From Heterodontus francisci (taxonomy: Eukaryota): a DNA stretch of 64,000 nt. Numbering within the stretch: the stretch's first letter is position 1; each line of letters starts with the position of its first letter. Below the pieces are notes generated by a model. The model saw only the letters and a program-made list of their open reading frames with translations. It did no database searches and was not told where the DNA came from. The stretch lies in contig NC_090407.1 in assembly GCF_036365525.1 (NCBI RefSeq), forward strand, positions 19,540,234 through 19,604,233. The letters are read 5' to 3'. Position numbers and translations under genes: made by a program. This document shows positions 26,134 through 50,226 of the stretch, piece after piece.

Positions 26134-26182
26134 CTTCTTGTACCCGAGGTAGATTGGATTGGTCGATCGCGATTTCAGTCAT
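26134..26182 (-). CDS. ccdc50: CCDC50-like first coding exon (MTEIAIDQSNLPRVQE)
   Basis: ATG at 26182, 49 bp to a G|gtgaga donor; matches human MAEVSIDQSKLPGVKE. An in-frame upstream ATG (MVNPKLA) and an acceptor 'tttattttag' at ~26241-26250 suggest an upstream 5'UTR exon. Confidence 0.9.
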
Positions 26183-26959
26183 TGCTAGTTTTGGGTTGAC
26201 CATAAAACGCGGGTTGGGATCATCCAAATAATGAAACTGTCTAAAATAAATACACAAAAATGCGTTATATGATGTTCAAACTGTTTAAACAAAGGATTCG
26301 TGGCCCACTAGCAGTTTTTCAATTATGAACTTCAAAAATAAATAAACTGAGCAACCCAGGGGAAAGGCTGTGCAGATCAAAAGAAAAGTTAGAAAGAGTT
26401 GTAAGGAGGTAAATGATATACTGGTCAGGTGACATCAAGATTGGCTTTGTAAAGTCTGTTAATTGTAGGAAACAGGGAAAACTCGGAGAGGAGGAAGAGG
26501 AGGAGGAGGAGGAGCACACATATCAGAGCAGGAGATATTGTAACAAGTCTTCGTTTCAATACACTCATGAACAGAGGCAGGGAGAAGGTGCCGGGGTAGA
26601 GCAGGCAGGGTGTCCCTCACCCTGTTAATGTGGGACCCTCAGTGGAGAGGATGTTCAGAACCTAGAGTAAAAGAATCAGTAAGAAGGAGGCAGGAGAATG
26701 TGTGACCCAACTCCCAGACCCAGTTCCTGAACAAGCTTTCAGTTGTATTCATGTATCATTGAACTGCTTCACCCCCCAGGATAAAGATCCAGCCTCTCCC
26801 CACTCCCACATCCCAACTCTCTGAGATGTCAAACAATAAATGTAAATTCAACTGACCAGAACCCCCTACTCCCTCCCTCCCTCCCTGTCCTCTCCCCTCT
26901 CCCCTCCTCAGAAAGCCCCAATGTTCAGATACAACTGAACTGTTTCATTTCTGATACAC

Positions 26960-27230
26960 AGATGGAGCGCGGAATTTCAGCGGATCAATATCAATATCGG
27001 TACCGGGTCCCTCCTCTCCCTCCTCCCGGTCTCTCCCTCTCCTTTTCACCAATAGTTAAAGCTCCACAACAATTTGGATAAAAACTTTCCTGAACTATTT
27101 GATGTTCTTCCTCCGCTGCCAGAAATACCGAGTCCGAATCCCGGCCCCGGACTCCGAGCCTCTCGATCACCAGCTCCCGGTCTCGGTCTCTCTCTCTCTC
27201 TCTTCATTCACTCCCCGCCCCCACTGGGAA
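26960..27230 (-). promoter_or_regulatory. CpG-enriched candidate promoter / non-coding first exon of the ccdc50-like gene
   Basis: Local CpG enrichment ~1 kb upstream of the first coding exon; possible donor at ~27129 (TCG|gtattt). Confidence 0.4.
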
Positions 27231-27650
27231 ATCTCTCCTCTTTATCTCACTCCCTCCCTCCTTTGCCTCTCTCACTCTGTCCCTCTTTATTTCTCTAACT
27301 CTTGTCTCTTTATCTCTCTCATTCATACTCTATGTACTCAATCTTACCTCTTTCTCTCCCTCCCTTTACCTCATTCTTTATATACCTCCGATTTATCTCA
27401 CTCACACTCTCTATCCCTCCATCTCACTCTCTATCTCTCCCTTTATCTCAAGCACTCTCTCCCTCTCTTACTTTCTCTCTATCTCACTCTCTCTATCCCC
27501 CTCCCTCTCTCTCTCTCACTCCATCTCTCTATCCCTCCCTCCCTCTATCTATCTCACTCACTCACACTCTCTCTCTATCCCTCCCTCTATCTATCTATCT
27601 CACTCTCTCTCTCTCCCTCCCTTTATCTCTCTCACTCACTCACTCTCTGT
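27181..27650. repeat. CT-rich degenerate microsatellite
   Basis: (CT)n-rich polypyrimidine tract. Confidence 0.9.
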
Positions 27651-27899
27651 TGATGCTCCAACAGCTGTTGTCTTTGGGAGTACGGAGTGCAGCTGCTGCC
27701 AAACCACATTCAAAATCCTGTTCCCACATCTGCACAGGGTGATGGGAGCCAAAGCCCAGCAGTGTGTGTGAACAGAGCCTGACTGTCCAGCTTTACACAA
27801 ACAGCTTCACATCTGAGAGCTGCCCCAGTCCCTCATTGCCAGACTGCTGCACTTACACAGTCAGCTTGGTAAACAGACACAAGCCTCTCTTTTAACCTT

Positions 27900-28330
27900 T
27901 CAACAACAGCATCAATTTGCATTTATATAGCATCTTTAATGTAGTAAAACATCCCACAGGAGTGCTATCAAACAAAATGTGACAGCAAGCTACATAAGGA
28001 GATATTCAGACAGGTAGTGAGTGAAAGAGGTAAGTTTAAAGGAGCAGGGAGAGGCTATGAGGAGATTCCAAAGCTTGGGGCCCAGATAGCTGAAGGCACA
28101 GCCACCAATGGTGGAGTAAAGGGAGTGCAGGATGGAAAAGAGGCCATAATTGGAGGAATGCCGAGATCTCAGAGGGTTGTCGGGCTGGAGGAGGTCACAG
28201 AGATAGGGGAGTGGCAGGGCCAGGGAAGAATTTGAAAACAAAGATGAGAATTTCACATTTGAGCCAATGTTGGTCAGTGAGCACCAGAGTGTTGGGTGAA
28301 CAGGAGGTGGTGTGAGTTAGGATATGGGCA
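27900..28330 (-). mobile_element. L2-like LINE 3' fragment
   Basis: Reverse complement of the 3' part of 28845-29540. Confidence 0.7.
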
Positions 28331-28844
28331 GCAGTTTATGCAGGGTGGGAGGCCGTCCAGGAAGAAAAGAGGAAATCTCACAATATCTGGACTCTCTGGT
28401 TTTGGGAATAAGCTGCAACTGTATAATAGGGTCATTTACAAATGCAGTAATGGCAGCTTTCAGTGTAAAATATACAGCAGGTGTCGCAGTGCCTGTGAGG
28501 AAAGAGAACAGGTTGGAAGCTGAAAGGTGAAGCAGGGGTTGCTCAGTGTCAATAGCCAACAATGAAGATTAAATTCCACTTTTTCATTAAACTGCACTAT
28601 TAACAATTTCTTCAGCAATGAGACAACTGCATCAGGAACAGCCCTTTCCAAACCTCCAGACCCACAAAAACCAAACAAGACAAATTGCCCAGAGAAAAGT
28701 GAATCCCTTTCTCCTGGTTTCCACTTCTGTTGAAGGGTCAGATGACTGAGTAGCTGAGTTCTGTATGGAGCAGGAAAGCTGTCCAATTCCATAAGTTACC
28801 TGCTTTCGCCTGGGGTGTCAGATGGGATAATGCAACTGACCAAA

Positions 28845-29540
28845 TGCTTCCAAATCCGTGCCTGTCTTTCCCACAACTCCATGTTTGAACTCCTCCAATC
28901 AGGTTTCTGCCCCTGCCATAGCACTCCAATGGCCTTTATATAAGTCACAAATGACATCTTGTGTGACAGTGACCAGGGTAAATTATCCCTCCTCATCCTT
29001 CTTGGCCCCTCTGCAGCCTTTGACACGGTTGACTGCACCATTCTCCTCCACTGCCTCTTCCAACATCTATAAACTTGAACTCATCCAAAACTCTGCTACC
29101 TATATCCTAACTCGCACCAAGTCCTGTTTATTCATTGCCCCATGTGCTCGCTGATGCCACTGGCTCCCAGTCCAGCAGCACCTCAATTTAAAAATTCTCA
29201 GCCTTTGATTTTAATGGCTTTGTTTCTCTCTATCTTTGTAATTCTCTTCAGCCCTACAACCCTCCGAGATCGCTGTGATTCTCCATTTCTGGCCTCTGGT
29301 GCATCCCTAATTTTAATCACTTCGCCATTGGCAGCCATGACCCTAAGCTCTGGAATTCCCTCCCTAAACTTCTCCACCTCTCTATCTCCCTCTCCTCCTT
29401 TCAGACCCTCCTTAAAACCAGCCTCTTTGATCAAGTTTTTGGTCACCTGTCCTAATATCTCAGTGTCAAAACACTCCTGGGAAGCACCTTAAAATGTTTG
29501 ACTACATTAAGGATGCTATATAAATGAAAGTTGTTGTTGT
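28845..29540 (+). mobile_element. L2-like LINE fragment (degenerate RT + 3' end)
   Basis: Degenerate QSGF.P.HST...VTNDIL...AAFDTVD..ILL RT motifs; (GTT)n tail. Confidence 0.8.
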
Positions 29541-30119
29541 TGCTAATGACCTCAGCATCCCAGGGCTCAGTTTGCGGCCCCTCATTATTATCTCCTGTGA
29601 AGACACATATGTGGACGTTGGGCTCAGCTTTGATGCCCCACACTGTCGAATAGGCTGACGACTGTCTCTGAAGAATGGCTGTTTGGGTGAGGGGCACCCT
29701 GCATCTGTGGGACCCGTACCCCAGGCTCAGTCCGTGTCTTCAGAAGAAGAATGTTCCTGGAAAAAGGATGAATAAGAACAGCGAAGAACAGAACATTCTT
29801 CAAGGGTCAGCACGCTCTCGGCTCCTGATTTTCTCATCCACATAAGGAATTCCTCTTTATTTTAGCCAATGTTTATGGTACATCTTGTTAAGCCTGGGCT
29901 AGGTCTGAGGGCAAGCTGTAGCAGCTCAGATGGGACGTGGTGTTAAGAATACAGTAGCTGTACTGGTGGATAGGACAGCAGTCAGAAACAGCAGCTTCAT
30001 GCTCAGCACTCTTACACGTCTCTGAGTTTGATACTTCCTCACTGAGGGAGGCTATCAGGTCCAGAACCAACAACAACCACTGAGCACCTCTGGGCATGAG
30101 GGCATCACATCGTGCTTGT

Positions 30120-30410
30120 CCGCTGTGGCTCACTGGGTAGTTCTCTCCCTCCTTTGAGGCAGAGGGGTGTGGGTTCAAGTCCCACTCTTGAAACACGGTC
30201 ACAGTATCTAGGCTGAAAGTCCAGTGCATTGAGTGCTGCACTGTTGGAGGTGCCTTCTTTTGAATGAGATGTTAAACCGAGGCCCTGGTCTGCCCTCTCA
30301 GGAGGATGTAAAAGATCCCATAGCACTGTTTGGAAGAAGAGCAGGGGAGTTATCCCCGGTGTCCTGGTCAATATTTATCCCTCAACCAACATCATTTAAA
30401 TAGATTATCT
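30120..30410 (+). mobile_element. SacSINE1/Deu-SINE-like
   Basis: tRNA-like head 'gtggctcactgggtag...gggttcaagtccc' and conserved body. Confidence 0.75.
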
Positions 30411-30550
30411 AGTCCTCCCTTCCTGCCTTTCATTCTTATTGGATAAATACCTGTAGGAGAAAAGATTGCAGGGATGTGGGGAAGAAGCTGGGGAGTAAGA
30501 CTAACTGGATTGCTCTCTGAAAGAGGTGGCTCAAACTCGATGGGCCGATT

Positions 30551-31819
30551 TGAAGTGGATTATAATCCTAGTCCCTTTTTGGGACCATCCCAGATCAGAC
30601 ATACTCCCCAGATGATCACTCTCACTTAAGGTTGAGAAAGACAGATCTTACAGATACAAATGGGTCTGAAGAACTGATCTAACTCTCCCCAAAGGAAAGA
30701 AACCAGCTGAGAATATTATCATCTCCAGATAACCTCGTTAACAAGTTTTAGCCAGATTATAACAACCCAGACATTATAAGGTTCTGGGCATCTCTCCTCA
30801 ATAACGTACCTCCCCACTAAAGAGTGTATGGAGATGGGTTCTCAAGTTTGTGATACAGAAGACTACATGAGACAACATATTTTTGAAATTATATAAAAGT
30901 TTATTAAAGAACCGAACATGCAATTCATATGTGATGGAAGTCAATTGCAACATTAATAATGCTAGGAAAAGAAAGAAAGTATAATCTTATTTCTAGTACA
31001 GAATCCAAGTTTTAAGTCTAAATATTTATAATATTTGAGATATCCATCAACATTTAAAGCAGCATTTACCTTAAATCCCCGAGTAGAAAGCTACAGAGTT
31101 TATTGAGATACCTCTATTCCAATTGAGGGGAGAATTATCATCGCTGCACCAGGTAGCTCCTACTTTTACCATAAGAAACGCTGAAGTGAATCCAATGAAT
31201 CTAAAGATCCACTGTGTGGTTCCAATATTTATACTGTTTCTAAGCTGCATAACTAGTTTTTTAATGTATGGGGGTGTTGGCTCTCTTCCAAGTAGATTTA
31301 TTCCCTTCTATTTCCCAAATAAGGCTGTATGACTGTCAATTTCTGGTTAAGATCCACCCTCTTTGATTTTTAAGAAAGGCTGGGCCAGCAGCAGGCTGAG
31401 AGCTTCTCATGGTGGGCAATATCCTTAATCACCTGTGTTTCAAAATTATAAATTCAGTTTCCTGGGTTTGGTCAGTTTTGTTAAAATTTCAGCTGACTGT
31501 GGTTTAGGCCTGTCCATATAAGACTATTTTATCAACTAGTTCACTGTTCTGGTTAACGTGATCATTTGTAAACTGTGTTATCAATGTTTTACCGTGCGAT
31601 GAGGTTCATGACTTTTTAGGAGTGAATCCCTCTTATCAGAAGCTGCCTCTGAGCTCTCAGATGAGGCAAACCCTTCACCTCAGAGGCATATCGGAGGCAC
31701 GCCTATGAACTTCTTTTAACCTTTTCAGAAGCTGAACCCTGCTTTTAATATTTTAATGTCTAACTCATAGGAAAATAACTTTTTAACCTTATAACCCCTT
31801 ATTATGGCTGATTCCTTCA
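30551..31819 (-). mobile_element. Solo-LTR-like element (~1.27 kb), putative ERV/LTR retroelement
   Basis: TGAAG...CTTCA inverted termini; splits a CR1 tail (gggccga|atggcc) with a degenerate 6-bp TSD CCGATT/CAGAAT. Minus-strand TATA (31226-31234) and AATAAA (30900-30905). Homologous to 61931-63218. Confidence 0.72.
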
Positions 31820-32014
31820 CAGAATGGCCTCTTTTTGTACTGTACGATTCTGTGATTCTTTGCCAGTCAATGCAAACCTGTCACTCCTAGTCAAGAGCAA
31901 ACTGTCTGGCTAAGGAGGAACAGAAACCGTGAAAGCAGTTTGTACTGTGGCCTTGGTTCTCATTCTCCTGGCTTCCATCTGCTTATGTTTATGGTGGAAG
32001 TTGTGGATCACTGG

Positions 32015-32815
32015 TGTGGGAAAATGTGAAGTTATGCATTTGGTCGTAAGAATAGAAAAGCAGAATACTTTTCAAAAGGTGTGAACTTGTAAGTGTCGAT
32101 GTTCAAAGAGACTTGGGTGTGCTTGTAGAAGGAATACAGAAAGTTAACATGCAGGTACAACAAGCAATTAGGAAGGCAACTGGCATGTTGGTCAAATATT
32201 GCAGGGGGATTGGAGTACAGGAATAAGGAAGTATTACTACAATTGTATGGGGTTTTGGTGAGACGGCATCTGGAATACTATGTGCAGTTATGGTCTCCAC
32301 ATTTTAGAAAGGATATACTTGCATTGGAGGCAGTGCAGTAAAGGTTCACTAGATTGGTCCCTGGGATGAGGGGGTTGTCCAGTAATGAAAGACTAAGTAA
32401 ATTGGGCCAGTATTCTCTGGGGTTTAGAAGAATGAGAGGTGATCTCAATGAAACATATAAAATTCGAAAGGTCTGGATTGGGTAGACAGTGAGAGATTAT
32501 TTTCGCTGGTCAGGGAATCTAAAACACAGGGTCACAGTCTCAGCACAAGGGGGCGATCATTTAGGACTGAGATGAGGAGAAATTACTTCACTCAAAGAGT
32601 TGTGAATCTTTGGAATTCTCTACCCCAGAGGTTTGTGAATGCTCCATCGTTGAATGCATTTAAGGCTGGGATAGATAGATTTTTGATCTTTCAAGGAATC
32701 AAGGGATATGGCGAGCAGGCAGGAAAGTGGAACTGAAACCTAAGATCAGCTATGATCGTATTGAATGATGGAGCCACATGGTCAACTTCTGCTCCTATTT
32801 CTTGTGTTCTTGTGT
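32015..32815 (+). mobile_element. CR1 LINE 3' fragment
   Basis: Degenerate KCEVMHFG, RDLGV, LVR.HLEY and RMRGDL.ETYKI motifs plus CR1 3'UTR. Confidence 0.9.
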
Positions 32816-32854
32816 TCTAACCCCCCAGTGTTCAGTCTGGGCCTTGCGACTGCT

Positions 32855-35800
32855 TTGGCGCATCACTCCAAATACACTGGCGCATCACCCTATCTGCACC
32901 GGCACACCACCCTATCTGCACTGGCACTTCACCCGATCTGCACTGGCGCTTCACTCCAACTACACTGGCACATCACCCTATCTGCTCTGGCACATCACTC
33001 CAACTACACTGGCGCATCACCCTATCTGCACTGGCACATCACTCCAACGACACTGGCGCAATGCCCTATCTGCACTGGCACATCACTCCAACTACACTGG
33101 CACATCACCCTATCTGCACTGGCACATCACTCCAACTACACTGGCGCAACACCCTATCTGCACTGGCACATCACTCCAACTACACTGGCGCATCACCCTA
33201 TCTGCACTGGTGCATCACCCTATCTGCACTGGCACATCACTCCAACTACACTGGCGCATCACCCTATCTGCACTGGCACATCACTCCAACTACACTGGCA
33301 CACCACCCTATCTGCACTGACACATCACTCCAACTACACTGGCGCATCACCCTATCTGCACTGGCACATCACCCTGTCTGCACTGGCACATCACTCCAGC
33401 TGCACTGATGCATCACCCTCTCTGCACTGGCGCATCACCCTATCTGCACTGGCACATCACTCCAACTACACTGGCGCATCACACTGTGTGCACTGGCACA
33501 TCACTCCAACTGCACTGGTGTATCACCCTATCTGCACTGGCACATCACTCCAACTACACTGGCGCATCATCCTATCTGCACTGGCACATCACCCTATCTG
33601 CACTGGCACATCACTCCAACTACACTGGCGCATCACCCTATCTGCACTGGCACATCACCCTATCTGCACTGGCACATCACTCCAACTACACTGGCGCATC
33701 ACCCTATCTGCACTGGCACATCACCCTATCTGCACTGGCACATCACTCCAACTACACTGGTGCATCACCCTGTCTGCACTGGCGCATCACTCCAGCTGCA
33801 CTGACGCATCACCCTATCTGCACTGGCGCATCACTCCAACTACACTGGTGCATCACCCTGTCTGCACTGGCGCATCACTCCAGCTGCACTGACGCATCAC
33901 CCTATCTGCACTGGCGCATCACCCTATCTGCACTGGCACATCACTCCAACTACACTGGCGCTTCACCCTATCTGCACTGGCGCTTCACCCTATCTGCACT
34001 GGCGCATCACCCTATCTGCACTGGCACATCATTCCAACTACACTGGCGCATCACTCCAGCTACACTGGTGCATCACTCTATCTGCACTGGCGCATCACGC
34101 CAACTACACTGGCGCATCACCCTGTCTGCACTGGCGCATCATCCTATCTGCACTGGCACATCACCCTATCTGCACTGGCACATCACTCCAACTACACTGG
34201 CGCATCACCCTATCTGTACTGGCATATCACCCTGTCTGCACTGGCATCTCACTCCAGCTGCACTGACGCATCACCCTCTCTGCACTGGCGCATCACCCTA
34301 TCTGCACTGGCACATCACTCCAACTACACTGGCGCATCACCCTACCTGCACTGGCACATCACTCCAACTACACTGGCGCATCACCCTATCTACACTGGCG
34401 CATCACCCTGTATGCACTGGCACATCACCCTATTTGCACTGGCACATCACTCCAACTACACTGGCGCATCACCCTATCTGCACTGGCACATCACTCCAAC
34501 TACACTGGCGCATCACCCTATCTGTACTGGCATATCACCCTGTCTGCACTGGCATCTCACTCCAGCTGCACTGACGCATCACCCTCTCTGCACTGGCGCA
34601 TCACCCTACCTGCACTGGCACATCACTCCAACTACACTGGCGCATCACCCTATCTACACTGGCGCATCACCCTGTATGCACTGGCACATCACCCTATTTG
34701 CACTGGCACATCACTCCAACTACACTGGCGCATCACCCTATCTGCACTGGCGCATCACTCCAACTACACTGGTGCATCACCCTGTCTACACTGGCACATC
34801 ACTCCAGCTGCACTGACGCATCACCTTATCTGCACTGGCGCATCACCCTATCTGCACTGGCACATCACTCCAAAAACACTGGCGCATCACCCTATCTGCA
34901 CTGGCACATCAATCCAACTGCATTGGCACATCACCCTGTCCACACTGGCACATCACTCCAACTACACTGGCGCATCACTCCAACTACACTGGTGCATCAC
35001 TCTTATCTGCACTGGCGCATCACTCCAACTACACTGGCACATCACCCTGTCTGCACTGGCGCATCATCCTATCTGCACTGGCACATCACTCCAACTAAAC
35101 TGGCACATCACCCTACCTGCACTGGCACATCACTCCAACTACACTGGCACATCACCCTATCTGCACTGGCGCATCACCCTATATGCACTGGCACATCACC
35201 CTATCTGCACTGGCACATTACTCCAACTACACTGGCGCATCACCCTATGTGCACAGGCACATCACACCAACCACACTGGCACATCACACCAACCACACTG
35301 GCACATCACCCTATCTGCACTGACACATCACTCCAACTACACTGGCACATCACTCCAACTACACTGGCACATCACCCTGTCCGCACTGGCACATCACTCC
35401 AACTACACTGGCACATCACTCCAACTACACTGGCGCTTCACTCCAACTACACTGGTGCATCACTCTTTCTGCACTGGCGCATCACTCCAACTACACTGGC
35501 GCATCACCCTGTCTGCACTGGCACATCTCCCTATCTGCACTGGCACATCACTTCAACTACACTGGCGCATCACCCTATCTGCACTGGTGCATCACTCCAT
35601 CTACACTGGTGCATCACCCTGCCTGCACTGGCACATCACTCCAGCTGCACTGATGCATCACCTTATCTGCACTGGCTCATCACCCTATCTGCATTGGCAC
35701 ATCACTCCAACTACACTGGCGCATCACCCTGTCTGCACTGGCACATCACTCCAACTGCACTGGTGCATCACCCTATCTGCACTGGCACATCACTCCAACT

Positions 35801-36010
35801 AAACTGGCGCATCACCCTATCTGCACTGGCGCATCACTCCAACTACACTGGCGCATCACCCTATCTGCACTGGCACATCACTCCAACTACACTGGTGCAT
35901 CACCCTGTCTGCACTGGCACATCACCCTATCTGCACTGGCGCATCACCCTATCTGCACTGGCACATCACCCCAACTACACTGGTGTGTCACCCTATCTGC
36001 ACCAATGCAT
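32855..36010. repeat. 22-bp minisatellite, ~143 units, two interleaved variants (CTGGCRCATCACCCTATCTGCA / CTGGCRCATCACTCCAACTACA)
   Basis: Directly visible periodicity. Confidence 0.97.
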
Positions 36011-36765
36011 CACCCAACATGCAGCAATGCAAACAGGAGACCCAGATGCAGCTTTCAATGGGGTGGGGGAGATGGTCTGTTGGGGCCACCAGAGATGGGC
36101 CGTGACCTTCTTGAGTGACTCACATTGGAACTGAAATCTGGTCCATCTTGAGACAGAGGATTGAGGCCTAGGGCATGGACAGGCACATGGTCAGAAGATG
36201 AGAATCAGTTGCTATAACCAGTTTCCTTTGAATGGGGAATAGTTTGGGACAAAGTGCTTCATAGGTTCTCCTTTCAAGTCTTGCGTGCTTGGATTGCAAG
36301 ATAACTCTGCATCATTCACACTATAGCCCTAGGGTGGATACACCCTTGGCTCATAGTAAAGGAATGTCTGATAACAAGTATGTCAGACTGTTAATAGTTA
36401 TGGTGTTGGACCATAAGATACACCAAGGTAGTTGCCTTTTAAGTGCCATCTGTAATGGACTTAGCAAGCCACTCAGTTGTACAGGGCAGCTTGACATGGG
36501 CAGTAAATAGTGGCCTTGGCAGTGACACCCACATCCTGAGAATGACTGAAAAAAAAACTTGTGAGGAAGAACCAGTTGTGACTGAGGTTACCAATGGTTA
36601 CTCAGCCCTTTGACATTGAATCCCATCAAAATCCAGTACCTTCAGGAGACAAGGGGAACTAAGGGACAAGACAGAAAGGTAACATTTCTAGATTCCTCTT
36701 TCCAACTGGCCGGAGTTGGCAGGGAAAGGATCCGTTCCTTTTTCCTCTGGTGACAACATGTAGAT

Positions 36766-37087
36766 TTTATTTATTTATTTAGAGATACAGCACTGAAACA
36801 GGCCCTTCGGCCCACCGAGTCTGTGCCGACCAAGAACCACCCATTTATCCTAACCCTACAGTAATCCCATATTCCCTACCACCTACCTACACTAGGGGCA
36901 ATTTACAATGGCCAATTTACCTATTACCTGCAAGTCTTTGGCTGTGGGAGGAAACCAGAGCACCCAGCGAAAACCCACGCAGTCACAGGGAGAACTTGCA
37001 AACTCCGCACAGGCAGTACCCAGAATTGAACCCGTGTCGCTGGAGCTGTGAGGTTGCGGTGCTAACCACTGCGCCACTGTGCCACCC
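36766..37087 (-). mobile_element. tRNA-derived SINE with CR1-like tail (HE1/V-SINE-like)
   Basis: Reverse complement of 56600-56960; (TTTA)n tail. Confidence 0.85.
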
Positions 37088-37639
37088 TCGCTGTCAGCTC
37101 CTTGATTTAGAAACTCTATGAAAGGTCACATTGCATTTCTTTTACTTTTTATCTCAATTTTCCTCTGACTTCATTTATAGGTTCTGTTTTAGCATATTTA
37201 TTACAGGATATGCAATCTAAAAATCATCTATTCACACCAGTGTTACATATTTATTACTCTGCAAAACTGCAGAAATATTAGCTTAGACATGCAGGCGCAG
37301 CTGTGGCTGGATGCATCTACTTTGTATTTTATTAAAAGATACAAGAGGTAATTGGACACAGAACCAAGCAACCAACTGTAAAATTCAGAGAAGTGAAACT
37401 TTACTGACTGTTGACCATCTTACTTTACTTCTTTATTCTGTATATGTTTTACTATTATCTTAATTTTTTTTAAAAGAATGATTGTAATACATAACGAAGC
37501 TGAGTTATGGCACATAGACACATAGGCAATAACCTGGATTGATTTCATCGGCTGGTGCAGTTTATTATGGAGTTGAGTCAAACAGACCAGGATGATGTCA
37601 GTCTTCATCCTCAGTCTGTGCTAACTTAGAAAATCAGAG

Positions 37640-38235
37640 CCTAAATGGGATGGAGGAACAAAGGGGTACAGAGTCACAAATCATCAAAAGTAGCAACACA
37701 GGTTAACAAAGCCTTAAAAAAATACAACAAAAGCACTTTGCTCCATTTCCAGAAGAACAGCCTTGAAAAGCAGGGAAGATATGTCAAACATATCTTGGTT
37801 AGACCACTTGTGGAGCACGGTACACAGTTCCACCCTCCATATTATGAAAAAGGATTTGGAGGCATCAGAGAAGGTACAAAAAAGGTTAACAAGGATAACA
37901 AAGATCTGGGGGAACGGAGGGTGGGGGGCGATGGGGTACAACTATCAGGAAAGACTCGTGCTGTTTTCTCTAAAAAAAAGAAGGCGGAGGAGTGACCTAA
38001 TTGAGGTCTTTAAAATTATGAAGTGGTTTGATAGATAAATCCAATAATAAATTCAGCAGAAACCTCTTTCCCTAAAGAGTGGTTAGAATGTGGAACTGAC
38101 TACCACAAGGAATGGTTGAGGTGAATAGTATAGATGCATTTAGGGGGAAGCGAGATAAGTACATGAGGGAGAAAGGAATAGAAGGATATGTTGATAGGAT
38201 GAGATGGGAGGAGGCTCGTGTGGAGCATAAACAAT
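37640..38235 (+). mobile_element. CR1 LINE 3' fragment
   Basis: Degenerate LVRPL.E and R.DLIEVFKIMK.FDR motifs. Confidence 0.8.
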
Positions 38236-38692
38236 GACATTCTTCGAAGCAAAAAAATTTGAATTCGATTTAGGAGTGGAGCTATATAACATTGTTGGCT
38301 CAGTTGAGAGAGTTTGGGAAGGGAAGGGGAGCAGGGGAGGGCTCTTTAAGAGACTTTCAATGTAACATCTGCAAATCTTATCTTAAAAAATAAACCTTTA
38401 ATTCACTCAATACTAACTACATTTCATGTCAGAATCTGTTGGATAAATCTGCGTCACTCAGCTTGTGACCGATAAATAACTCTTGAAAGGCGGGAGCTGA
38501 CAGAGGGAAGTAAATTTGATGGGTTTATTATTTTTGACTGTTGGTGATGGGCAGTAAATCTACGTCCCATCTGCTGTCGTATTTTATCCTTGAAACTGAG
38601 TCAGAATGAAGTGCTGATTGGATTTAACACCTCAAGGTAATAAAACAATATTTTATTGATCCTGCTATATTGTTTGTGAGGGGGAAGGGGGT

Positions 38693-38700
38693 TATATAAA
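38693..38700 (+). promoter_or_regulatory. TATA box of uts2 (TATATAAA)
   Basis: 80 bp upstream of the ATG; a CRE-like TGCGTCA lies at 38450-38456. Confidence 0.75.
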
Positions 38701-38772
38701 GGTTTGTGCTCAGCTTTGGGTGTACACCTCTGCTCTTCTCTGTCTCTCTTGTCTCTCAACCTCTTTTCAATC

Positions 38773-38863
38773 ATGATGTCCTTGGTGCTTGTAGCTGGTG
38801 CATTGCTTCTCAGTGGCTCCTGTGTCTTTGCTCTGCCCATTGCAGACTCCATGTACAGAGCAG
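38773..38863 (+). CDS. uts2: Prepro-urotensin II exon 1 (signal peptide MMSLVLVAGALLLSGSCVFALPIADSMYRA)
   Basis: Hydrophobic signal peptide, 91 bp, strong donor CAG|GTAAGT. Confidence 0.88.
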
Positions 38864-38999
38864 GTAAGTGGGGAGAGATGGGGGAGGTGAGGTGGGATGA
38901 TGATGAGGCACAAGTCAGCTGCTACTGAACCTTCTCCAGTGTCACCATCATCAATCATTCATCTCCATGTGTCAATATAAAAAAAAAGTGCCATGTAAA

Positions 39000-39350
39000 G
39001 AGACTCCAATGCAGTACTGAGGGAATGCTGCACTGTCAGAGGTGCTGTCTTTCAGACGAATGTCAAAGCGAAGCCCCACCTGCTCTCTGAGATCGATGTT
39101 TAAAGATCTCACAGCACAATTAGAAAGAGAGCAGGGGATTCTCTATCCTGAACAATAATTATCCTTCAACCAACATCACTAAAACAGATTATCTGGTCAT
39201 TATCATATTGTTGTTTGTGGGAGCTTGCTGTGCACAAATTGAATGCTGCATTTCCAACAATGACTACACTTCAAAAAGTACTCATTGATTGTAAAGTGCT
39301 TTGGGATATTCTGAGGTTGTGAAAGGTGCTATACAAATGCAAGTTCCTTC
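39000..39350 (+). mobile_element. SacSINE1/Deu-SINE-like
   Basis: Conserved body and tail as in the other copies. Confidence 0.75.
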
Positions 39351-40424
39351 TTTGGATTTTATTTCCGTATTATTAAGTGTTATAGCTGATAACTGTTCTT
39401 GTATGTATGTTAATATATTAAAGTGCTAAAGTTAATTCAGTCTGGAGTTTATAACTGAGTTCAGCAGTTACACTTCTTGTGCTTTAAATGTGTGCAGAAT
39501 TCCTGAACAGAATGGAGTTAAGATGTATGCTAACGTTTAATTTAGTTTTTTGGTGCTTGGGATCCGATTGTACAAAGTTGAGTTTGGGATCTTGTTCTAA
39601 AAGTGATGCAGTTTCAGTTAAATCTCACATTCTGTTTATATTTCTGTTTCTCTGTTTGTTTGATGAACTGTAATCAGAGTTTAGTTTGCTAAGATTAAAT
39701 TACTAATCCATTTACTCCCTACCAAATGTAATTACTAGCATTAAACTAGAAAGACAGATCAGTGATTTCAAACGCTGAGTTTACAGTGTTATTACAGAAT
39801 GTTGAGAGATATGAAAATTAATATTTAATATACAATATAAATTTACCCAGTCTATGGTGAGCGTGGGATTTCCTCTTTGATTCAGGTACTGGAGCTGGGA
39901 GCAGAGGCTCGGTGAAAGTTTTTAAAATTTTATTTTCATTTGTGTCCCTTTTATTTGCAAGTTAAATGTGGAATTTAAGAATCAAAATATTTAGAACACA
40001 ATTTTTTCTTCTATTTCCTTCCCTACACTGTTGAAATTTTTGGTTGATAAGCCTTCATCAGAACCTTTTTGGCTTGAAACATTTCTCTCTCCACAGATGC
40101 TGCCAGACCTGCTGTGTATTTTCAGCAGTTTCCATTTTTATTTCAGATTTCCTGAATCCACAGGACGTTGCTCTCGAAGTAAGGAGCTGCATTGATATCT
40201 GTTTAGAAGGGACTGGGGGTTAGAAAATATTAACAGCGAGGTGATATAAGGTGAAATCTGTTACGAGATATTACGGTGAAGTAGGTGAAGGGACTCAGTG
40301 CTCTGGGTGGGCGCCTGAGACAGAATATTCAGATGTGGGCTCTGGATAAAGTGGGATAAGGGGCTAAATGGCCTGTGGTCTTCAAGTGTTCTGATGTTGT
40401 AACACTCAAATAATTTTCTTCCAG

Positions 40425-40574
40425 TGTCCAGCGAGGAAAATCAGGCCTTAAACCTGGACGAATTGCAAAGTTTGGACAATAACTTCCTGCTGTGGAGCCC
40501 ACCTGCTATGATGCCGAGGACCAGCCTCTATGATGCCATCAGAGATCTAGAAGCTGCTGAACAATATAAAAATG
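40425..40574 (+). CDS. uts2: Prepro-urotensin II exon 2 (VSSEENQALNLDELQSLDNNFLLWSPPAMMPRTSLYDAIRDLEAAEQYKN)
   Basis: Acceptor ttttcttccag, 150 bp open in phase 1-1, donor G|gtacag. Confidence 0.78.
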
Positions 40575-41009
40575 GTACAGTCCACTGATTGAGGGCCCCA
40601 AGAACAGCCCTCACTTTCCACTCTCACCCTGCGTATAGATAGCCAAAGTGAAGGAAGGCTCACACATAGTGCAGTTACAACGTCTGGCTCCTAGATGTCT
40701 ATGGCAAGCTTCTATAGGATGTCGAGTTGGTGTTTGCTAAGAATGCTGGTGACACCTGGTGGTGGGGGAAGCAGTACTGCAAATCTGGGAGCTGGGTTTG
40801 AATCAGGCCACAATATCTCCCCTGCCTGCTGGCTGTAACTGATGTGAGTTTGGACAGGCTCAGTTGAGTTCTCATTGCCAAGACATCTGCTTCTACTTCA
40901 CTGCTAATTGGTAATCTTATCATTGCGGCTACAGAATGGCTGATGTGGAAATGAAAACAGACCATAATGGTGCAGTAGAGGTTCATCATCTTCTGAGGTC
41001 GGGCTTGAG

Positions 41010-41515
41010 ACAGTGTAGACGGAACTTTACTCCACATCCAACCCGTGCTGTACCTGCTCTGGGTGTGTTTGATGGGACAGTGTAGAGGGAGCTTTACTCT
41101 GTATCTAATCTGTGCTGTACCTGTCCTGGGAGTGTTTGATGGGACAGTGTAGAGGGAGCTTTACTCTGTATCTAACCTGTGCTGCACCTGTCCTGGGAGT
41201 ATTTGATGGGACAGTGTAGAGGGAGCTTTACTCTGTATCTAACCTGTGCTGCACCTGTCCTGGGAGTATTTGATGGGACAGTGTAGAGGGAGCTTTACTA
41301 TGTATCTAACCTGTGCTGCACCTGTCCTGGGAGTGTTTGATGGGACAGTGTAGAGGGAGCTTTACTCTGTATCTAACCTGTGCTGCACCTGTCCTGGGAG
41401 TATTTGATGGGACAGTGTAGAGGGAGCTTTACTCTGTATCTAACCTGTGCTGCACCTGTCCTGGGAGTGTTTGATGGGACAGTGTAGAGGGAGCTTTACT
41501 CTGTATCTAACCCTT
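41010..41515. repeat. 65-bp tandem repeat (~7 units)
   Basis: GTTTGATGGGACAGTGTAGAGGGAGCTTTACTCTGTATCTAACCTGTGCTGCACCTGTCCTGGGA repeated; a monomer lies at ~43530-43590. Confidence 0.95.
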
Positions 41516-41738
41516 GCTCCACTGGATTGGATTCAGTGTAACCCAGAGATGTGATTCACTGCCATCTGCTCCCATCAAGGGACGCTTCACACTGGCAATC
41601 CAGACATACTCTGCTCCCCTCTGTGAACTCTCTCTTTATACCTTGGACTCATGCTCTGGGCTCTGAGGATTAAGCTGTGCGTTCTCCTCCATCTATTGTG
41701 TCCAGGAGTTGAATTGTATCTTCCTTCCTTGTCAACAG

Positions 41739-41782
41739 ATCTGAGGGAAATCGGTGACACCCACTCTGGAAACCTGAAAGAG
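41739..41782 (+). CDS. uts2: Prepro-urotensin II exon 3 (DLREIGDTHSGNLKE)
   Basis: Polypyrimidine + caacag acceptor, 44 bp, donor GAG|gtgagt; links phase 1 to phase 0 correctly. Confidence 0.8.
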
Positions 41783-41835
41783 GTGAGTTCAGATCATGGA
41801 AAATCTGAGGCATCATTGCTTTTAGAGAATCAGCA

Positions 41836-43520
41836 CACCTGTCTGTCACCCCCTCACCTGTCTGTCACCCCCTCACCTGTGTGTCACCCCCCTCACCTGT
41901 GTCACCCCCCCTCACCTGTGTGTCACCCCCTCACCTGTGTCACCCCCTCACCTGTGTGTCACCCCCCTCACCTGTGTGTCACCCCCTCACCTGTGTCACC
42001 CCCTCACCTGTGTGTCACCCCCTCACCTGTGTCACCCCCCTCACCTGTGTCACCCCCTCACCTGTGTGTCACCCCCCTCACCTGTGTCACCCCCCTCACC
42101 TGTGTCACCCCCTCACCTGTGTGTCACCCCCTCACCTGTGTCACCCCCTCACCTGTGTGTCACCCCCCTCACCTGTGTCACCCCCTCACCTGTGTCACCC
42201 CCTCACCTGTGTGTCACCCCCCCTCACCTGTGTCACCCCCTCACCTGTGTGTCACCCCCTCACCTGTGTCACCCCCTCACCTGTGTGTCACCCCCTCACC
42301 TGTGTCACCCCCTCACCTGTGTGTCACCCCCTCACCTGTGTCACCCCCTCACCTGTGTGTCACCCCCTCACCTATGTCACCCCCTCACCTGTGTCACCCC
42401 CTCACCTGTGTGTCACCCCCTCACCTGTGTCACCCCCTCACCTGTGTGTCACCCCCTCACCTGTGTGTCACCCCCCTCACCTGTGTATCACTCCCCCTCA
42501 CCTGTGTCACCCCCTCACCTGTGTATCACCCCCCTCACCTGTGTCACCCCCTCACCTGTGTGTCACCCCCCTCACCTATGTCACCCCCTCACCTGTGTGT
42601 CACCCCCCCTCACCTGTGTCACCCCCTCACCTGTGTGTCACCCCCTCACCTGTGTCACCCCCTCACCTGTGTGTCACCCCCCCTCACCTATGTCACCCCC
42701 TCACCTGTGTGTCACCCCCTCACCTGTGTCACCTCCTCACCTGTGTGTCACCCCTCCCTCACCTGTGTCACCCCCTCACCTGTGTATCACCCCCTCACCT
42801 GAGTATCACCCCCCCTCACCTGTGTATCACCCCCCTCACCTGTGTCACCCCCTCACCTGTGTGTTAGCCCCCCTCACCTGTGTCACCCCTCACCTGTGTG
42901 TCACCCCCCTCACCTGTGTGTCACCCCCTCACCTGTATGTCACCCCCCTCACCTGTGTCACCCCCTCACCTGTGTGTCACCCCCTCACCTGTGTCACCCC
43001 CTCACCTGTGTGTCACCCCCTCACCTATGTCACCCCCCTCACCTGTGTGTCACCCCCTCACCTATGTCACCCCCTCACCTGTGTGTCACCCCCTCACCTG
43101 TGTGTCACCCCCTCACCTACGTCACCCCTCACCTGTGTGTCACCCACTCACCCGTGTGTCACCCCCTCTCCTGTGTCACCCCCCTCACCTGTGTGTCACC
43201 CCCTCACCTATGTCACCCCCCTCACCTGTGTGTCACCCCCTCTCCTGTGTCACCCCCTCACCTGTGTGTCACCCCCTCACCTACGTCACCCCTCACCTGT
43301 GTGTCACCCCCTCACCCGTGTGTCACCCCCTCTCCTGTGTGACCCCCTCACCTGTGTGTCACCCCCTCACCTATGTCACCCCCTCACCTGTGTGTCACCC
43401 CCTCACCTATGTGTCACCCCCTCACCTACATCACCCCCTCACCTGTGTGTCACCCCCTCACCTGTCACCCATCATCTGTGTCACCCCCCTCACCTGTGTC
43501 ACCCCCCCCCCCTCACCTGG
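41836..43520. repeat. ~19-23-bp minisatellite (TCACCCCCTCACCTGTG[TG])n in uts2 intron 3
   Basis: Directly visible; generates the Pro/His/Cys-rich artefact ORFs. Confidence 0.97.
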
Positions 43521-43943
43521 GTGTCAACCCCACACCTGGGTGTGTTTGATAGGACAATGTAGAGGGAGCTTTTCTCTGTATCTAACCCAGTGGGAACTGC
43601 CTCCATAGCTGAATATCCTGCTTATATTCACTGTCTCAGTTTTAGCCATATGAAGGATGGACATGAGGGTGAGGTAAGTCAGGGTGTCTGGAACTACTGG
43701 AATTGTACCCATGAGAGTCATGTGCTGAGTGGGGGCGGAGTTGGTGGTTTCAGGTACGGATTATGGTGTGGTGGCTGCAGGTGGGGTAGGGTTAGGGACT
43801 GGAGTGGGTGGGATTTGGGTGGGGGTCAGGGTTGGGTGGGAGTGGAGATTGGAAATGCAATGTAAGAAAGGCTGGTAAAAATGAATGTTTAAATGATCCT
43901 TTGAATCCTTGGTAACCAATGTCTATTGTGATTCTATCTACAG

Positions 43944-44060
43944 ATTCTCTATGGAAGGAAATCCGAGCCGAAGTCAAGCCGCCTCCTCTTTGGAAAGGGT
44001 AGAAAACAATACAAGAAACGTAATAACTTCTCGGACTGTTTCTGGAAATACTGTGTTTGA
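43944..44060 (+). CDS. uts2: Prepro-urotensin II exon 4 encoding KKR cleavage site and mature urotensin II NNFSDCFWKYCV
   Basis: ILYGRKSEPKSSRLLFGKGRKQYKKR-NNFSDCFWKYCV-stop. The cyclic CFWKYC core is the urotensin II signature; the mature peptide (44022-44057) matches the dogfish UII sequence as I recall it. Confidence 0.97.
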   Translation: MLYGRKSEPKSSRLLFGKGRKQYKKRNNFSDCFWKYCV

Positions 44061-44496: not shown

Positions 44497-44608
44497 TTAC
44501 TCAGTGTCCATTCTCTGCACAACCTGCTCCACCAGCTCGATTTCTAAAGGAGTGACTGTTTCTGTCAGTATAGCAGTGGTTCCCTTCTTGTAGCGATACA
44601 CCCCCTCC
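44497..44608 (-). CDS. psmb10: Proteasome beta2i exon 8 ([36 protein letters not shown])
   Basis: Acceptor ctcctgcag; beta2-type C-terminal tail GTTA.LTE.VTPL. Confidence 0.92.
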
Positions 44609-45119
44609 CTGCAGGAGAAGATATCGGCAATTAACAGAGCACATTGCGGTATGGGGTGAAAGGCAGTGTGGGGAGTCACAGAAGTCCATTCGGCCCATCG
44701 TGCCTGTGGCCAGCTCTTTGAAAGAGCTCTCTAATTAGTGCCACTCTTTCCCCATTGCCCTGCAAATTTTTCCCCTCTGTGTATTTATCCAATTCCCTTG
44801 TGAAAGTTACCATTGAATCTGCTTCCACTGCCCTTTCAGGCAGCGTGTTCCAGATCATAACATATTGTATCTAAAAAAAAATTCTCAACTCTTTTGCAAT
44901 TATTTTAAATCCCTGGCATGCTTCCAGTCAATCTTCTCAGTACCCTCTCCAAGGTCTAGCCCAGAATTCATCAAAATCCTCCCACCGAAGCCAAACAAAT
45001 ATTTCATAAAGGTTTAGAACAACTTCTTTGTGTTTGTGTCTACGCCTCTGTTTAGAAAGATTTGTCCCCAGGATGGTCCCTGTCCTTCCAATAAATCCCC
45101 CTGGGAGCTCGGTACTTAC

Positions 45120-45271
45120 TTTGTGCCCTTCTTGTTGGGGGTGTCGAAGGCACGGAGGAACTCAGTCCTGTTATCGGTGATGATGCAGAGGTCAACGTTA
45201 CTCCCAGAGCCAAGGTCACTGAATATTCCGGCTGTGATGGCCTCACGGACCAGCTGCTTGGCTGCTTCTTC
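45120..45271 (-). CDS. psmb10: Proteasome beta2i exon 7 ([50 protein letters not shown])
   Basis: 152 bp, AG/GT boundaries, DLGSGSNVD motif. Confidence 0.95.
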
Positions 45272-45319
45272 CTAGAGATAAATAACCAGCCTCAGAGAGA
45301 ATTGTGGCAGCTGAGATTC

Positions 45320-46570
45320 CATGCAGGGCCCAGGGCTGGAGTAACCCAGGGCTGGAGTAACCCAGGGCCCAGGGCTGGAGTAACCCAGGACCCAGGGCTG
45401 GAGTAACCCAGGGCCCAGGCTGGAGTAACTCAGTGCCCAGAGCTGGAGTAACCTAGGGCCCAGGGCTGAAGTAACCCGGGGCCCAAGTAACACCGGGCCC
45501 AGGCTGGAGCAACCCAGGGCCCAGGGCTGGAGTAACCTAAGGTCCAGGCTGGAGTAATTCTGAACCAAGGGCTGGAGTAACCTGGGGCCCAAGTAATGCA
45601 GGGCCAGAGTAACCCAGGGCCCAGGGCTGGAGTAACCTAGGGCCCAGGCCAGAGTAATCTGGGGCCCAAGTAATGCAGGGCCAGAGTAACCCAGGGCCCA
45701 GGGCTGGAGTAACCTAGGGCCCAGGCCAGAGTAACCTGGGGCCCAAGTAATACAGGGCCAGAGTAACCCAGGGCTCAGGACTGGAGTAACCCAGGGCCCA
45801 GGGCTGAAGTAACCTAGGACCCAGGCGGGAGTAACCCAGGGCCCAGGGCTGGAGTAACCTAGGACCCAGGCCAGACTAACCCGGGGCCCAAGTAATACAG
45901 GGCCAGAGTAACCCAGGGCTCAGGACTGGAGTAACCCAGGGCCCAGGGCTGGAGTAACCTAGGACCCAGGTGGGAGTAACCCAGGGCCCAGGGCTGGAGT
46001 AACCTAGGACCCAGGCCAGACTAACCCGGGGCCCAAGTAATACAGGGCCAGAGTAACACCAGGCCCAGGCTAGAGTAACCCGGGGCCCAGGGCTGGAGTA
46101 ACCCAGGGCCCAGGCTGGAGTAACTCAGTGCCCAGAGCTGGAGTAACCTAGGGCCCAGGGCTGGAGTAACCTAGGGCCCAGGCCAGAGTAACCCGGGGCC
46201 CAGGGCTGGAGTAACCTAGGGCCCAGGCCAGAGTAACCCGGGGCCCAAGTAATACAGGGCCACAGTAACACAGGGCCCAGGCTAGAGCAACCCAGGGCCC
46301 AGGGCTTGAGTAACCCAGGGTCCAGGCTGGAGTAACCCAGGGCTGGAGTAACTCAGTGCCCAGGGCTAGAGTAACCCAGGGTCCAGGCTGGAGTAACCCA
46401 GGGCTGGAGTAACTCAGTGCCCAGGGCTGGAGTAACCCAGGGCTCAGGGCTGGAGTAACTCAGTGCCCAGGGCTGGAGTAACCCAGGGCTCAGGGCTGGA
46501 GTAACCCAGGGCTCAGGGCTGGAGTAACCCAGGGCTCAGGGCTGGAGTAACTCAAGGCTGGAGTAACCAA
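45320..46570. repeat. Compound minisatellite built on CCCAGGGCTGGAGTAA
   Basis: Directly visible. Confidence 0.95.
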
Positions 46571-47128
46571 GGGCAACTTACCATAACACAGAAGAAGATG
46601 AGGCCAGTACAGTAAGGTACTGTGATATTCTAGTAATTTACTAGTAATGCAGTGTGTAAATGTGCTATGGCCTATTTCTTCCTGTATTTTCCTGGACATC
46701 TGCATTTCCATGGTGCGGGCGGAGGGTGGTAGGCAGTTAGGGGAGGTGTGCTGGGTGGAGGCAGGTTGTGTGTGGGGGAGGGGGAGTGTGACAGGTGCTG
46801 CGAAGGGTGGAGAGACCCTAAAGGTGTTGGTGTCCAGGGAAGCAAGAATTCTTAATCCAATTTTGGCTCTTTCACCAATTGCACCATCCAGCGGGCCACA
46901 GAGGTATTTACCCGAGAATTTCCTGAGTCAGCTCATTGGTGTAAGTACTGCCTAAAACAGGTGTAATGTTCTCTTACAGAGTATCCAAATTAGGAATCCT
47001 TATATAGCTTTGTTGAGCTCAGGGGTTAGGTTAGGGGCGTTGGTTCCGCACTGGAGGTTTTGCCATGGCAACAGCGGGGGAGGGGATCCGGCCGTGTGCG
47101 CCCAATTCTCATCAGGTCATTCACTTAC

Positions 47129-47187
47129 CTCCATGTTTGGCTTGAAACGATCCTCCAGAACAGCCATGGCAGCAGCGGAGCCGGAAC
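47129..47187 (-). CDS. psmb10: Proteasome beta2i exon 6 (GSGSAAAMAVLEDRFKPNME)
   Basis: 59 bp, AG/GT boundaries, GSG (Ser129) motif. Confidence 0.95.
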
Positions 47188-47714
47188 CTGTTGCACAGAA
47201 GACACACAGACATTTATCACTATTCCAGGAAACCTGAGTGGGTCAGGCCATTCTCTCTCCCTCCCATCCTGAAGTGCTGACTCTCCCCGGGCTGCAGTCT
47301 CAGAGCACTCAATACCCTCTAGTACCCAAAGCAACCACCCATTCTTTATGTGGTAGCCTCGCCCGTGAGCCTAGCCAGGCAACTTGACCAGGGGACATCG
47401 TTTCAGGGTCACCAATCCTCCCGGAATATTCTGGAGCCTCCAGGAATTAAATCCCGGACGCTGCCACAAGCAAATTCAGCGGAATAATCATTGGGGTTTT
47501 TTTAGTTATAAAAATATGGGAGATGGGTAAAATTGCTGTTTGACTGGCAGTCACGAATCATCCAATTGGCCTGTTTGCCTTCTGATTGAAAGAGGAAGAC
47601 CAGTCCCAGAATGATTGATGGCTCCGGTGACCAATCGTGGGACCCTGGGGGTGGGGCAGTCAGTGGTCATGTGATGAAACCTCCTATGATCCATCCAACC
47701 AGATCCTGTCCTTG

Positions 47715-48072
47715 GACTTGGACAGGCTAAGTGAATGGGCAAGAACATGGCGGATGGAATGTAATGTGAATAAGTGAGGTTATCCAGTTTGATAGAAAAA
47801 AACAGAAAGACAGAGTATTTCTGAAATGATGCGAGTTTGGGAAGTGTTGACATCCAAAGGGATCTGAGAGTCCTTGTTCATGAGTCACTAAAAGATTGCA
47901 TGCAGATGCAGCAAGCAATTAGGAAGGCAAATGGTACATTGGCCTTCATCGTAAGGGGTTTTGAGTACAGGATTAAAGAAGTCTTGTTGCAATTGTATAG
48001 AGCCTTGGTGAGACCACACCTGGAGTATTGTGTGCAGTTTTGGTCTCCTCATCTAAGGAAGGATATACTTGG
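47715..48072 (+). mobile_element. CR1 LINE ORF2 fragment
   Basis: QRDLRVLV...LYRALVRPHLEYCVQFWSPHLRKDIL. Confidence 0.9.
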
Positions 48073-48346
48073 GTTCTTACAGCTTAGCAAACCACCCAGG
48101 CAGGTGAAACAATCTTTAAAGCATAAGAAAGAGGTCACTCGGCCCTTTGTGTCTGGGCTGGCTCTTTGAGAGATCTATCCAATTAGCCCAACTCTTGCCT
48201 GATCCTAACCCACAGCTAGTGCAAGTTTTTGTTTTTCAAGCATTTATCCAATTCTCTTTTGATTTGGTGTTTTTTGGAGAGCTTGTAACCAGCCCCAGGC
48301 CTGTTTGGCAGCCGAAGATTTAGACTGAGTGTTAAGTTCTCCTTAC

Positions 48347-48462
48347 CCATGGCGACAAAGGGCAGTTTGTCTGTGGAACCATGAGGGTACACTGCGTAGA
48401 GGTGGGGCCCTGAACAATCCACACCCCCAACGATCACTGACGCTCCAATATGCCCCTGGTAC
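48347..48462 (-). CDS. psmb10: Proteasome beta2i exon 5 ([38 protein letters not shown])
   Basis: 116 bp, AG/GT boundaries, conserved beta2 sequence. Confidence 0.96.
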
Positions 48463-50085: not shown

Positions 50086-50226
50086 CTGAACAGCATCTGT
50101 TTTAGCATCCGGTTAACCATGACCACACGGGGCTTGCGCCCGGTTGACAGGCTGTGCAGTTGGATGTTGGAGGCTATCATCTGTGTTGTAAATTCAGCAT
50201 CAGCTGCAACTCCTGCTCCACAGCAG
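50086..50226 (-). CDS. psmb10: Proteasome beta2i exon 4 ([46 protein letters not shown])
   Basis: 141 bp; GVAADAE (V48, E53) is the PSMB10-type signature versus GTAADTD in PSMB7. Confidence 0.95.

Follow-up and report, generated by a model that had tools for sequence, protein, structure and literature searches.

A urotensin II gene of the horn shark lies head-to-head with a CCDC50 paralogue, likely a genome-duplication twin of the UTS2B–CCDC50 pair

In the human genome, UTS2B, the gene of urotensin II-related peptide (URP), lies head-to-head with CCDC50 at 3q28. A similar proximity is documented in Xenopus, where ccdc50 was found close to uts2b within one bacterial artificial chromosome (BAC; PMC4319907), and the urotensin II (UII) family as a whole is derived from two genome duplications that produced four paralogues (PMC4364556, PMC8354755). 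Here we describe a related pair in a stretch of 64,000 nucleotides from the horn shark Heterodontus francisci (contig NC_090407.1, positions 19,540,234 to 19,604,233, forward strand), the whole of which is called the window below. As in the tetrapod pair, a UII-family precursor gene is divergent from a gene with a CCDC50_N domain. In contrast to that pair, the peptide gene of the window encodes UII, with four coding exons and a 12-residue peptide carrying Asp before its ring, the partner comes from the other of two CCDC50 clades, the start codons are 12.6 kb apart and a proteasome beta-2 gene follows on the 3' side. We consider it highly probable that the window holds the shark's true uts2 facing a CCDC50 paralogue (ccdc50b), a pair that likely arose by whole-genome duplication as the twin of the mammalian UTS2B–CCDC50 pair.

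The prepro-urotensin II gene occupies the plus strand with four coding exons (402 nt, 133 amino acids; Table 1) and three introns, all of them GT-AG. The encoded precursor comprises a signal peptide (Kyte–Doolittle mean of 2.7 for the best 11-residue stretch of the hydrophobic N-terminus), a propeptide, a basic cleavage site and a C-terminal CFWKYC ring, and ends in KKR-NNFSDCFWKYCV-stop. This CFWKYC-type pattern occurs a single time over the six frames of the window, and Pfam Urotensin_II matches exon 4 with 24.8 bits at a cut-off of 18.6. UII is recognised by an acidic residue in the N-terminal extension before the first Cys, and UII genes have four coding exons. Five residues, NNFSD, stand between KKR and the first Cys of the window peptide, which is thus not the URP/UTS2B type of octapeptide placed straight after the cleavage site, and the joins of the four coding exons are visible in contigs (transcript evidence throughout means contigs spliced across introns; no run is on record as RNA, and exons that the contigs leave uncovered were not taken as silent). 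Five exons are described for urp2 (PMC8354755). From a homologue search with exon 4 we obtained seven precursors, all from sharks and all identical in their last 15 residues, among them the three that RefSeq names 'urotensin 2, alpha' or uts2a (catshark, zebra shark and whale shark); the catshark 12-mer is the same as that of the window. No URP precursor was among these seven candidates, the sensitivity of the search being limited. At the locus itself, RefSeq lists XP_067872866 ('urotensin-2-like', on a contig of 51,423,871 bases), which is identical over the window exons. Going by established biology, the 133-residue precursor would enter the secretory path and be cut at KKR, freeing a disulphide-ringed 12-mer; UII of lamprey, dogfish and skate is reported to be identical (PMC3493602), and chondrichthyan UII to be located mainly in the caudal neurosecretory system (PMC4364556). 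The first-pass annotation, made from the letters of the window, had claimed a four-exon precursor ending in KKR and a 12-mer, of UII rather than URP type and divergent from a CCDC50-like gene about 12.6 kb away, and all of this was borne out, with 12,570 bases between the two ATGs.

The partner gene lies on the minus strand, where four coding exons with 118 codons agree letter for letter with the start of RefSeq XP_067873315 before the gene continues beyond base 1 of the window. Its RefSeq entries (XP_067873315/6, likewise on a 51,423,871-base contig) are named 'coiled-coil domain-containing protein 187'. However, Pfam finds CCDC50_N (PF15295) and nothing else on the full protein, with 143 bits at a cut-off of 27, and two exon-bearing frames of the window exceed this cut-off on their own. 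Human CCDC187 is an unrelated gene at 9q34, and the name 'ccdc187' for the fish and amphibian CCDC50 paralogue appears misleading. In UniProt the coelacanth member is labelled 'Coiled-coil domain containing 50b', and fish and amphibian entries called 'ccdc187', 'ccdc50b' or 'CCDC50-like' belong to the same tree clade as the window gene.

Canonical CCDC50 is present separately in the horn shark as XP_067898929, on a contig of 122,426,060 bases, and the two genes are likewise on different contigs in Stegostoma, Rhincodon, Callorhinchus and Erpetoichthys, which with the horn shark makes five species. In a maximum-likelihood tree of 37 full-length proteins chosen from 279 family members (305 columns, LG+G4), CCDC50 forms one clade (12 rows, support 100/100) and the paralogue a second (18 rows, 100/99), and both contain chondrichthyans as well as bony vertebrates. 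The second clade unites the window gene with proteins of chimaera, sturgeon, bowfin, teleost, coelacanth, lungfish, amphibian, tuatara and lizard, while neither of the two jawed-vertebrate clades includes lamprey, tunicates or other invertebrates (97/84). Forcing the six cartilaginous-fish paralogues together with CCDC50 was rejected by the approximately unbiased (AU) test (p-AU 0.00048), and over nearly full length the window gene is 48–53% identical to the frog, coelacanth and tuatara paralogues, as against 35% to horn shark CCDC50. Grouping apart from vertebrate CCDC50 and not being the sole copy in its genome, the neighbour of uts2 is, as judged from these sequence comparisons, a CCDC50 paralogue and not CCDC50 itself.

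PAX7, TNFRSF9, PARK7, HES5 and KCNAB2 are genes of human 1p36. All five names, together with UTS2A and CCDC50-like/CCDC187, can be read as fragments in the scrambled text of Supplementary Fig. 1 of Verissimo et al. (2023, PMC10751288), which depicts the psmb10 locus of three other elasmobranchs and labels UTS2A in the catshark row. The 1p36-type synteny of uts2 is hence read from this psmb10/UTS2A locus of other elasmobranchs, outside the present window. According to the same study, elasmobranch psmb10 moved out of the major histocompatibility complex (MHC), and in the catshark psmb10 is drawn on chr16 (144,966,053 bases) and psmb7 lies on chr21; catshark 'urotensin 2, alpha' is on a chromosome of the same 144,966,053 bp. 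With psmb10 outside the MHC and UTS2A and CCDC50-like/CCDC187 as neighbours, the published locus is the same as ours, and the uts2–ccdc50 pair is not discussed in the accessible psmb10/psmb7 text. The proteasome gene of the window, tail-to-tail with uts2, is most likely elasmobranch psmb10 and anchors this comparison of synteny. Additionally, UII and the paralogue are on contigs of equal length in all four sharks for which a length was available for both (horn, zebra, whale and sevengill), with near-adjacent accessions in two of them. An assignment to 9q33-34, based on the name 'ccdc187' and the PSMB7-like neighbour, was excluded by the catshark positions of psmb7 on chr21 and of psmb10 with UTS2A on chr16.

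These data also bear on a reading in which the locus would be the shark orthologue of the 3q28 block, that is, a UTS2B/URP gene with a UII-like peptide next to canonical CCDC50, so that orthology would need revision. Such a reading would account for the head-to-head layout, which is that of the human pair, uts2b and ccdc50 being also close together in the frog BAC, and for the published catshark gene table, which shows no uts2b-labelled gene near ccdc50a (PMC10751288). It is, however, contradicted by the separate canonical CCDC50 of the horn shark and the AU result, by the 1p36-type neighbours and by the RefSeq uts2a names in catshark, zebra shark and whale shark. Moreover, a UTS2B gene would have canonical CCDC50 on one side and OSTN on the other, whereas here the neighbour is the paralogue and a six-frame scan of the window yielded no osteocrin/natriuretic motif. 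We therefore regard orthology to the 3q28 block as extremely improbable. The first-pass annotation had left two options, a UTS2 segment that keeps a second CCDC50 paralogue or a revision of UII/URP orthology in sharks, and by its account the first would fail if the gene were the sole ccdc50 of the genome, grouped with canonical CCDC50 and lay next to ostn. With a separate CCDC50, two clades, the AU rejection and the published 1p36-type neighbours, the retained-ohnologue option holds and the revision is not needed.

The two CCDC50-family proteins differ in their C-termini. We sorted the 279 family proteins by profile score and counted database entries, including isoforms and close kin, which are not independent events: a CaaX-type end occurs in 147 of the 172 paralogue-type proteins (CKQQ in 143), in none of the 49 canonical CCDC50 proteins, in 28 of the 57 outgroup or weak matches (CKQQ in 21) and also in the lone ambiguous row, a lamprey protein. 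A tunicate, a lacewing and a spider are among the named outgroups ending in CKQQ. XP_067873315 ends in CKQQ as well, its final exon lying outside the window, and contains six D-x-x-hydrophobic-A-x-x-L/V/I-Q-x-E repeats versus five in horn shark CCDC50. These repeats we take to be ubiquitin-binding motifs like the motif interacting with ubiquitin (MIU). For LKB1, NAP1L1 and Pex19, CKQQ is known to serve as a farnesylation signal (PMC10320760), and from this shared C-terminus farnesylation of ccdc50b is predicted. On the simplest reading of the C-termini, the CKQQ anchor would be ancestral and would have been dropped by canonical CCDC50, and the clean split between the paralogues offers a simple handle on the evolution of CCDC50 localisation. 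We also find a second C-terminal motif, of NIAEELDPTF type, in 132 of the 172 paralogue-type proteins, 6 of the 57 outgroup or weak matches and the lamprey protein, but in none of the 49 canonical ones. A sequence search of the PDB gave no match for XP_067873315 and one chance match for a canonical CCDC50, and a functional paper on ccdc187/ccdc50b was not found in our literature search.

The model we favour starts from the arrangement observed here: two divergent genes, the neighbour falling in the second jawed-vertebrate CCDC50 clade and canonical CCDC50 lying on another chromosome. An ancestral block of a UII-family gene and CCDC50 would have been copied by genome duplication, most likely the second round, to give rise to UTS2B–CCDC50 (3q28 type) and uts2–ccdc50b (1p36 type). 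Judging from the match lists, ccdc50b would then have been kept in cartilaginous and ray-finned fishes, coelacanth, lungfish, amphibians and lepidosaurs, and is accordingly not specific to sharks, while its loss in mammals would leave UTS2 there without a CCDC50-type neighbour. The retained gene is predicted to encode an adaptor of coiled-coil type that bears six MIU-like repeats for ubiquitin binding and would preserve the ancestral farnesylation signal.

The best tree, with lamprey outside both clades, fits a duplication that postdates the branching of lamprey and predates the divergence of sharks and bony fishes. We favour the second round, the first round or an old segmental duplication being less likely. 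A local segmental duplication with no genome doubling, before sharks and bony fishes diverged, would agree with the tree, which says no more about the age of the split than that it precedes crown jawed vertebrates and which does not fix the position of lamprey. Two copies on different chromosomes in five species nevertheless speak against a local event. The two regions are also paired by TP63 at 3q28 and TP73 at 1p36. In the catshark, tp63 is indeed seen near ccdc50a (PMC10751288 supplement), and the literature cited above derives the four UII-family genes from two genome duplications. A segmental origin is thus very unlikely in our assessment.

Several points count against a retained twin made by genome duplication. 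Joining lamprey to either clade was not rejected (p-AU 0.07 in both cases), so that the second round is no more than favoured over the first. Loss of ccdc50b in mammals is likely and no firmer than that, because it rests on the matches listed (120 of 441 and 150 of 248), many of them unnamed: among the named paralogue members of these there is no bird, turtle, crocodilian or mammal, and names were assigned to only 20 family representatives and five shark paralogues. The gene order in the supplementary figure of PMC10751288 is not legible, and in a PDB search the proteasome exon used as query gives 71 bits with PSMB7 and the lower score of 62 bits with PSMB10, so that the psmb10 label depends on published synteny. 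In a protein atlas the UII clusters rank first for the precursor at 0.97, ahead of URP1 and UTS2B clusters at 0.95, a small margin. Finally, the CKQQ end lies beyond the window and is taken from the RefSeq model, and 25 of the 172 paralogue-type entries have no CaaX end, presumably as other isoforms or fragments.

Concerning the head-to-head arrangement itself, the nearest 5' ends observed for the two genes are separated by 11.2 kb, within which lies a 3.1-kb tandem repeat, and this speaks against a single bidirectional promoter. If a shared promoter or enhancer had kept the layout and the genes were co-regulated, the persistence of head-to-head order in both twins, presumably over more than 400 million years, would be explained, and spliced contigs of both genes do occur in the same runs (X1, X2 and X5). 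Yet uts2 has two TATA-like boxes of its own, ccdc50b was apparently lost in mammals while UTS2 stayed, and the 212 kb upstream of catshark ccdc50a hold no annotated gene (PMC10751288 supplement). Co-regulation from a common element is therefore unlikely. Most likely uts2 and ccdc50b have separate promoters about 11 kb apart, and their pairing is inherited synteny. The start-codon exon of ccdc50b is not its first exon, a non-coding exon being spliced to it in all four runs. The intron between them, 26241–27089 on the minus strand, has GA instead of GT as donor (context CAG/GAAAGT) and a normal AG acceptor in four of four runs from two organisms; either it is a rare GA-AG intron, or the assembly carries a one-base error or allele. 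A loose end of the X5 contig of ccdc50b has no match in the window.

For uts2, two alternative first exons are represented among the spliced contigs. In contigs of runs X1 and X2, which come from one sample of organism A and show 0 differences from the window, exon 2 follows directly on an upstream exon and the signal-peptide exon is skipped, and run X3 of the same sample shows matching depth over the upstream exon. In a contig of run X5 (organism B, 5 differences in exon 2), positions 38742–38860 are joined to exon 2, so the signal-peptide exon is used. As the upstream exon holds five short open reading frames (ORFs) and an in-frame stop, the only UII-bearing frame of the former transcript opens at 40508, encoding 75 amino acids that lack a hydrophobic leader. 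The RefSeq UII model of the horn shark is likewise of 75 amino acids and lacks the signal-peptide exon that is intact in the window; this model may have been derived from these data and does not count as separate support. The sevengill model has the same length and the same Met start. Skipping of the signal-peptide exon may account for the truncated RefSeq models of these two sharks, and the signal-less transcript may be a real regulatory isoform.

Taken together, these observations can be joined into a wider picture, which we consider doubtful, though conceivable. The misnamed 'ccdc187' of fishes, amphibians and lizards and the autophagy receptor CCDC50 would be second-round sisters, and 'ccdc187' would be the sole vertebrate copy keeping the ancestral farnesyl anchor CKQQ; canonical CCDC50 would have lost this membrane anchor, still found in insects, spiders, tunicates and lamprey, before it took on its present role. 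Shark uts2 would in addition possess two TATA promoters, the upstream one driving a conserved transcript with no signal peptide, which would yield a non-secreted 75-residue UII precursor or act as an off-switch.

Much of the locus is already known: both genes are annotated in RefSeq, the paralogue is named ccdc50b in one entry and the locus is labelled in the published supplementary figure (PMC10751288). As to novelty, which on the first pass was made to depend on the pairing being unreported for fish or shark uts2, our literature search found no paper stating the pairing, though specialist synteny figures (Tostivint 2006, 2013, 2014; Parmentier 2011; Quan 2012) may show it. The retained ohnologue pair is real and supports the standard evolutionary model, which our findings leave unchanged, and the modest new leads are two, the CKQQ split and the signal-less transcript. 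Since uts2 and UTS2B both keep the same head-to-head partner, the pair is a direct, gene-beside-gene witness for the accepted view of UII and URP as genome-duplication twins. The analysis also corrects a database name, fish 'ccdc187' being a CCDC50 paralogue, and brings to notice an unstudied vertebrate gene in fish and frog genomes.

Table 1. Positions of features in the window, counted from its first base
Feature	Position	Strand	Basis
TATA-like box, some 30 bases before the alternative uts2 first exon	38283..38289	+	sequence; function inferred
uts2 alternative non-coding first exon, GT donor at 38637, joined to exon 2, five short upstream ORFs	38316..38636	+	contigs of X1, X2
TATA-like box, some 50 bases before the point where the contig with the signal-peptide exon starts	38693..38700	+	sequence; function inferred
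uts2 coding exon 1 (signal peptide)	38773..38863	+	sequence; spliced contig of run X5 (organism B), transcript from at least 38742
uts2 exon 2, with Met at 40508 opening the 75-residue signal-less frame	40425..40574	+	sequence and spliced contigs
uts2 exon 3	41739..41782	+	sequence
uts2 exon 4, coding part: KKR cleavage site 44013-44021, mature 12-residue UII 44022-44057, stop	43944..44060	+	sequence and Pfam
ccdc50b non-coding upstream exon; 5' end not fixed, contigs cut at adjoining repeat	27090..27163	-	joint 26240/27090 in 4 of 4 runs
ccdc50b start-codon exon, ATGs at 26203 and 26182; coding part 26203-26134	26134..26240	-	sequence, contigs, RefSeq match
ccdc50b coding exon 2, 63 nt	12480..12542	-	sequence, Pfam, RefSeq match
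ccdc50b coding exon 3, 130 nt	10634..10763	-	sequence, Pfam, RefSeq match
ccdc50b coding exon 4, 91 nt; later exons outside the window	8650..8740	-	sequence, RefSeq match
Tandem repeat of 3.1 kb in the spacer between the divergent genes	32875..36002	.	Tandem Repeats Finder (TRF)
Proteasome beta-2-type gene, 8 exons, 278 amino acids, tail-to-tail with uts2, 436 bases between stops	44497..59162	-	sequence; published synteny

The 3' untranslated regions of uts2 and the psmb10-type gene abut or overlap, with poly(A) signals at 44121 and 44233 on the plus strand (both AATAAA, after uts2) and at 44335 and 44118 on the minus strand. In the catshark, ccdc50a lies on chr13 near tp63, p3h2, gmnc and fgf12a; on NC_052158.1, 154.6–159.9 Mb, it is about 5 Mb from gmnc and fgf12a, between which there are two unnamed genes (PMC10751288 supplement), and the OSTN–UTS2B–CCDC50 block may be broken in this species while its uts2 twin is intact. 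Pfam gave no curated match on 22 other frames of the window, mostly at 58.8–63.4 kb. Further long tandem-repeat arrays occupy introns at 41040–41510, 41840–43500, 45275–46460 and 50300–53240, among them a short-period array of 1.7 kb in intron 3 of uts2. Broken reverse-transcriptase frames of non-LTR (long terminal repeat) retrotransposons also lie in introns, at 1801–2958 and 57094–58353 on the minus strand and at 53717–55065 on the plus strand, and by their appearance we take two of them to be copies of LINE (long interspersed nuclear element) type and one to be Penelope-like.

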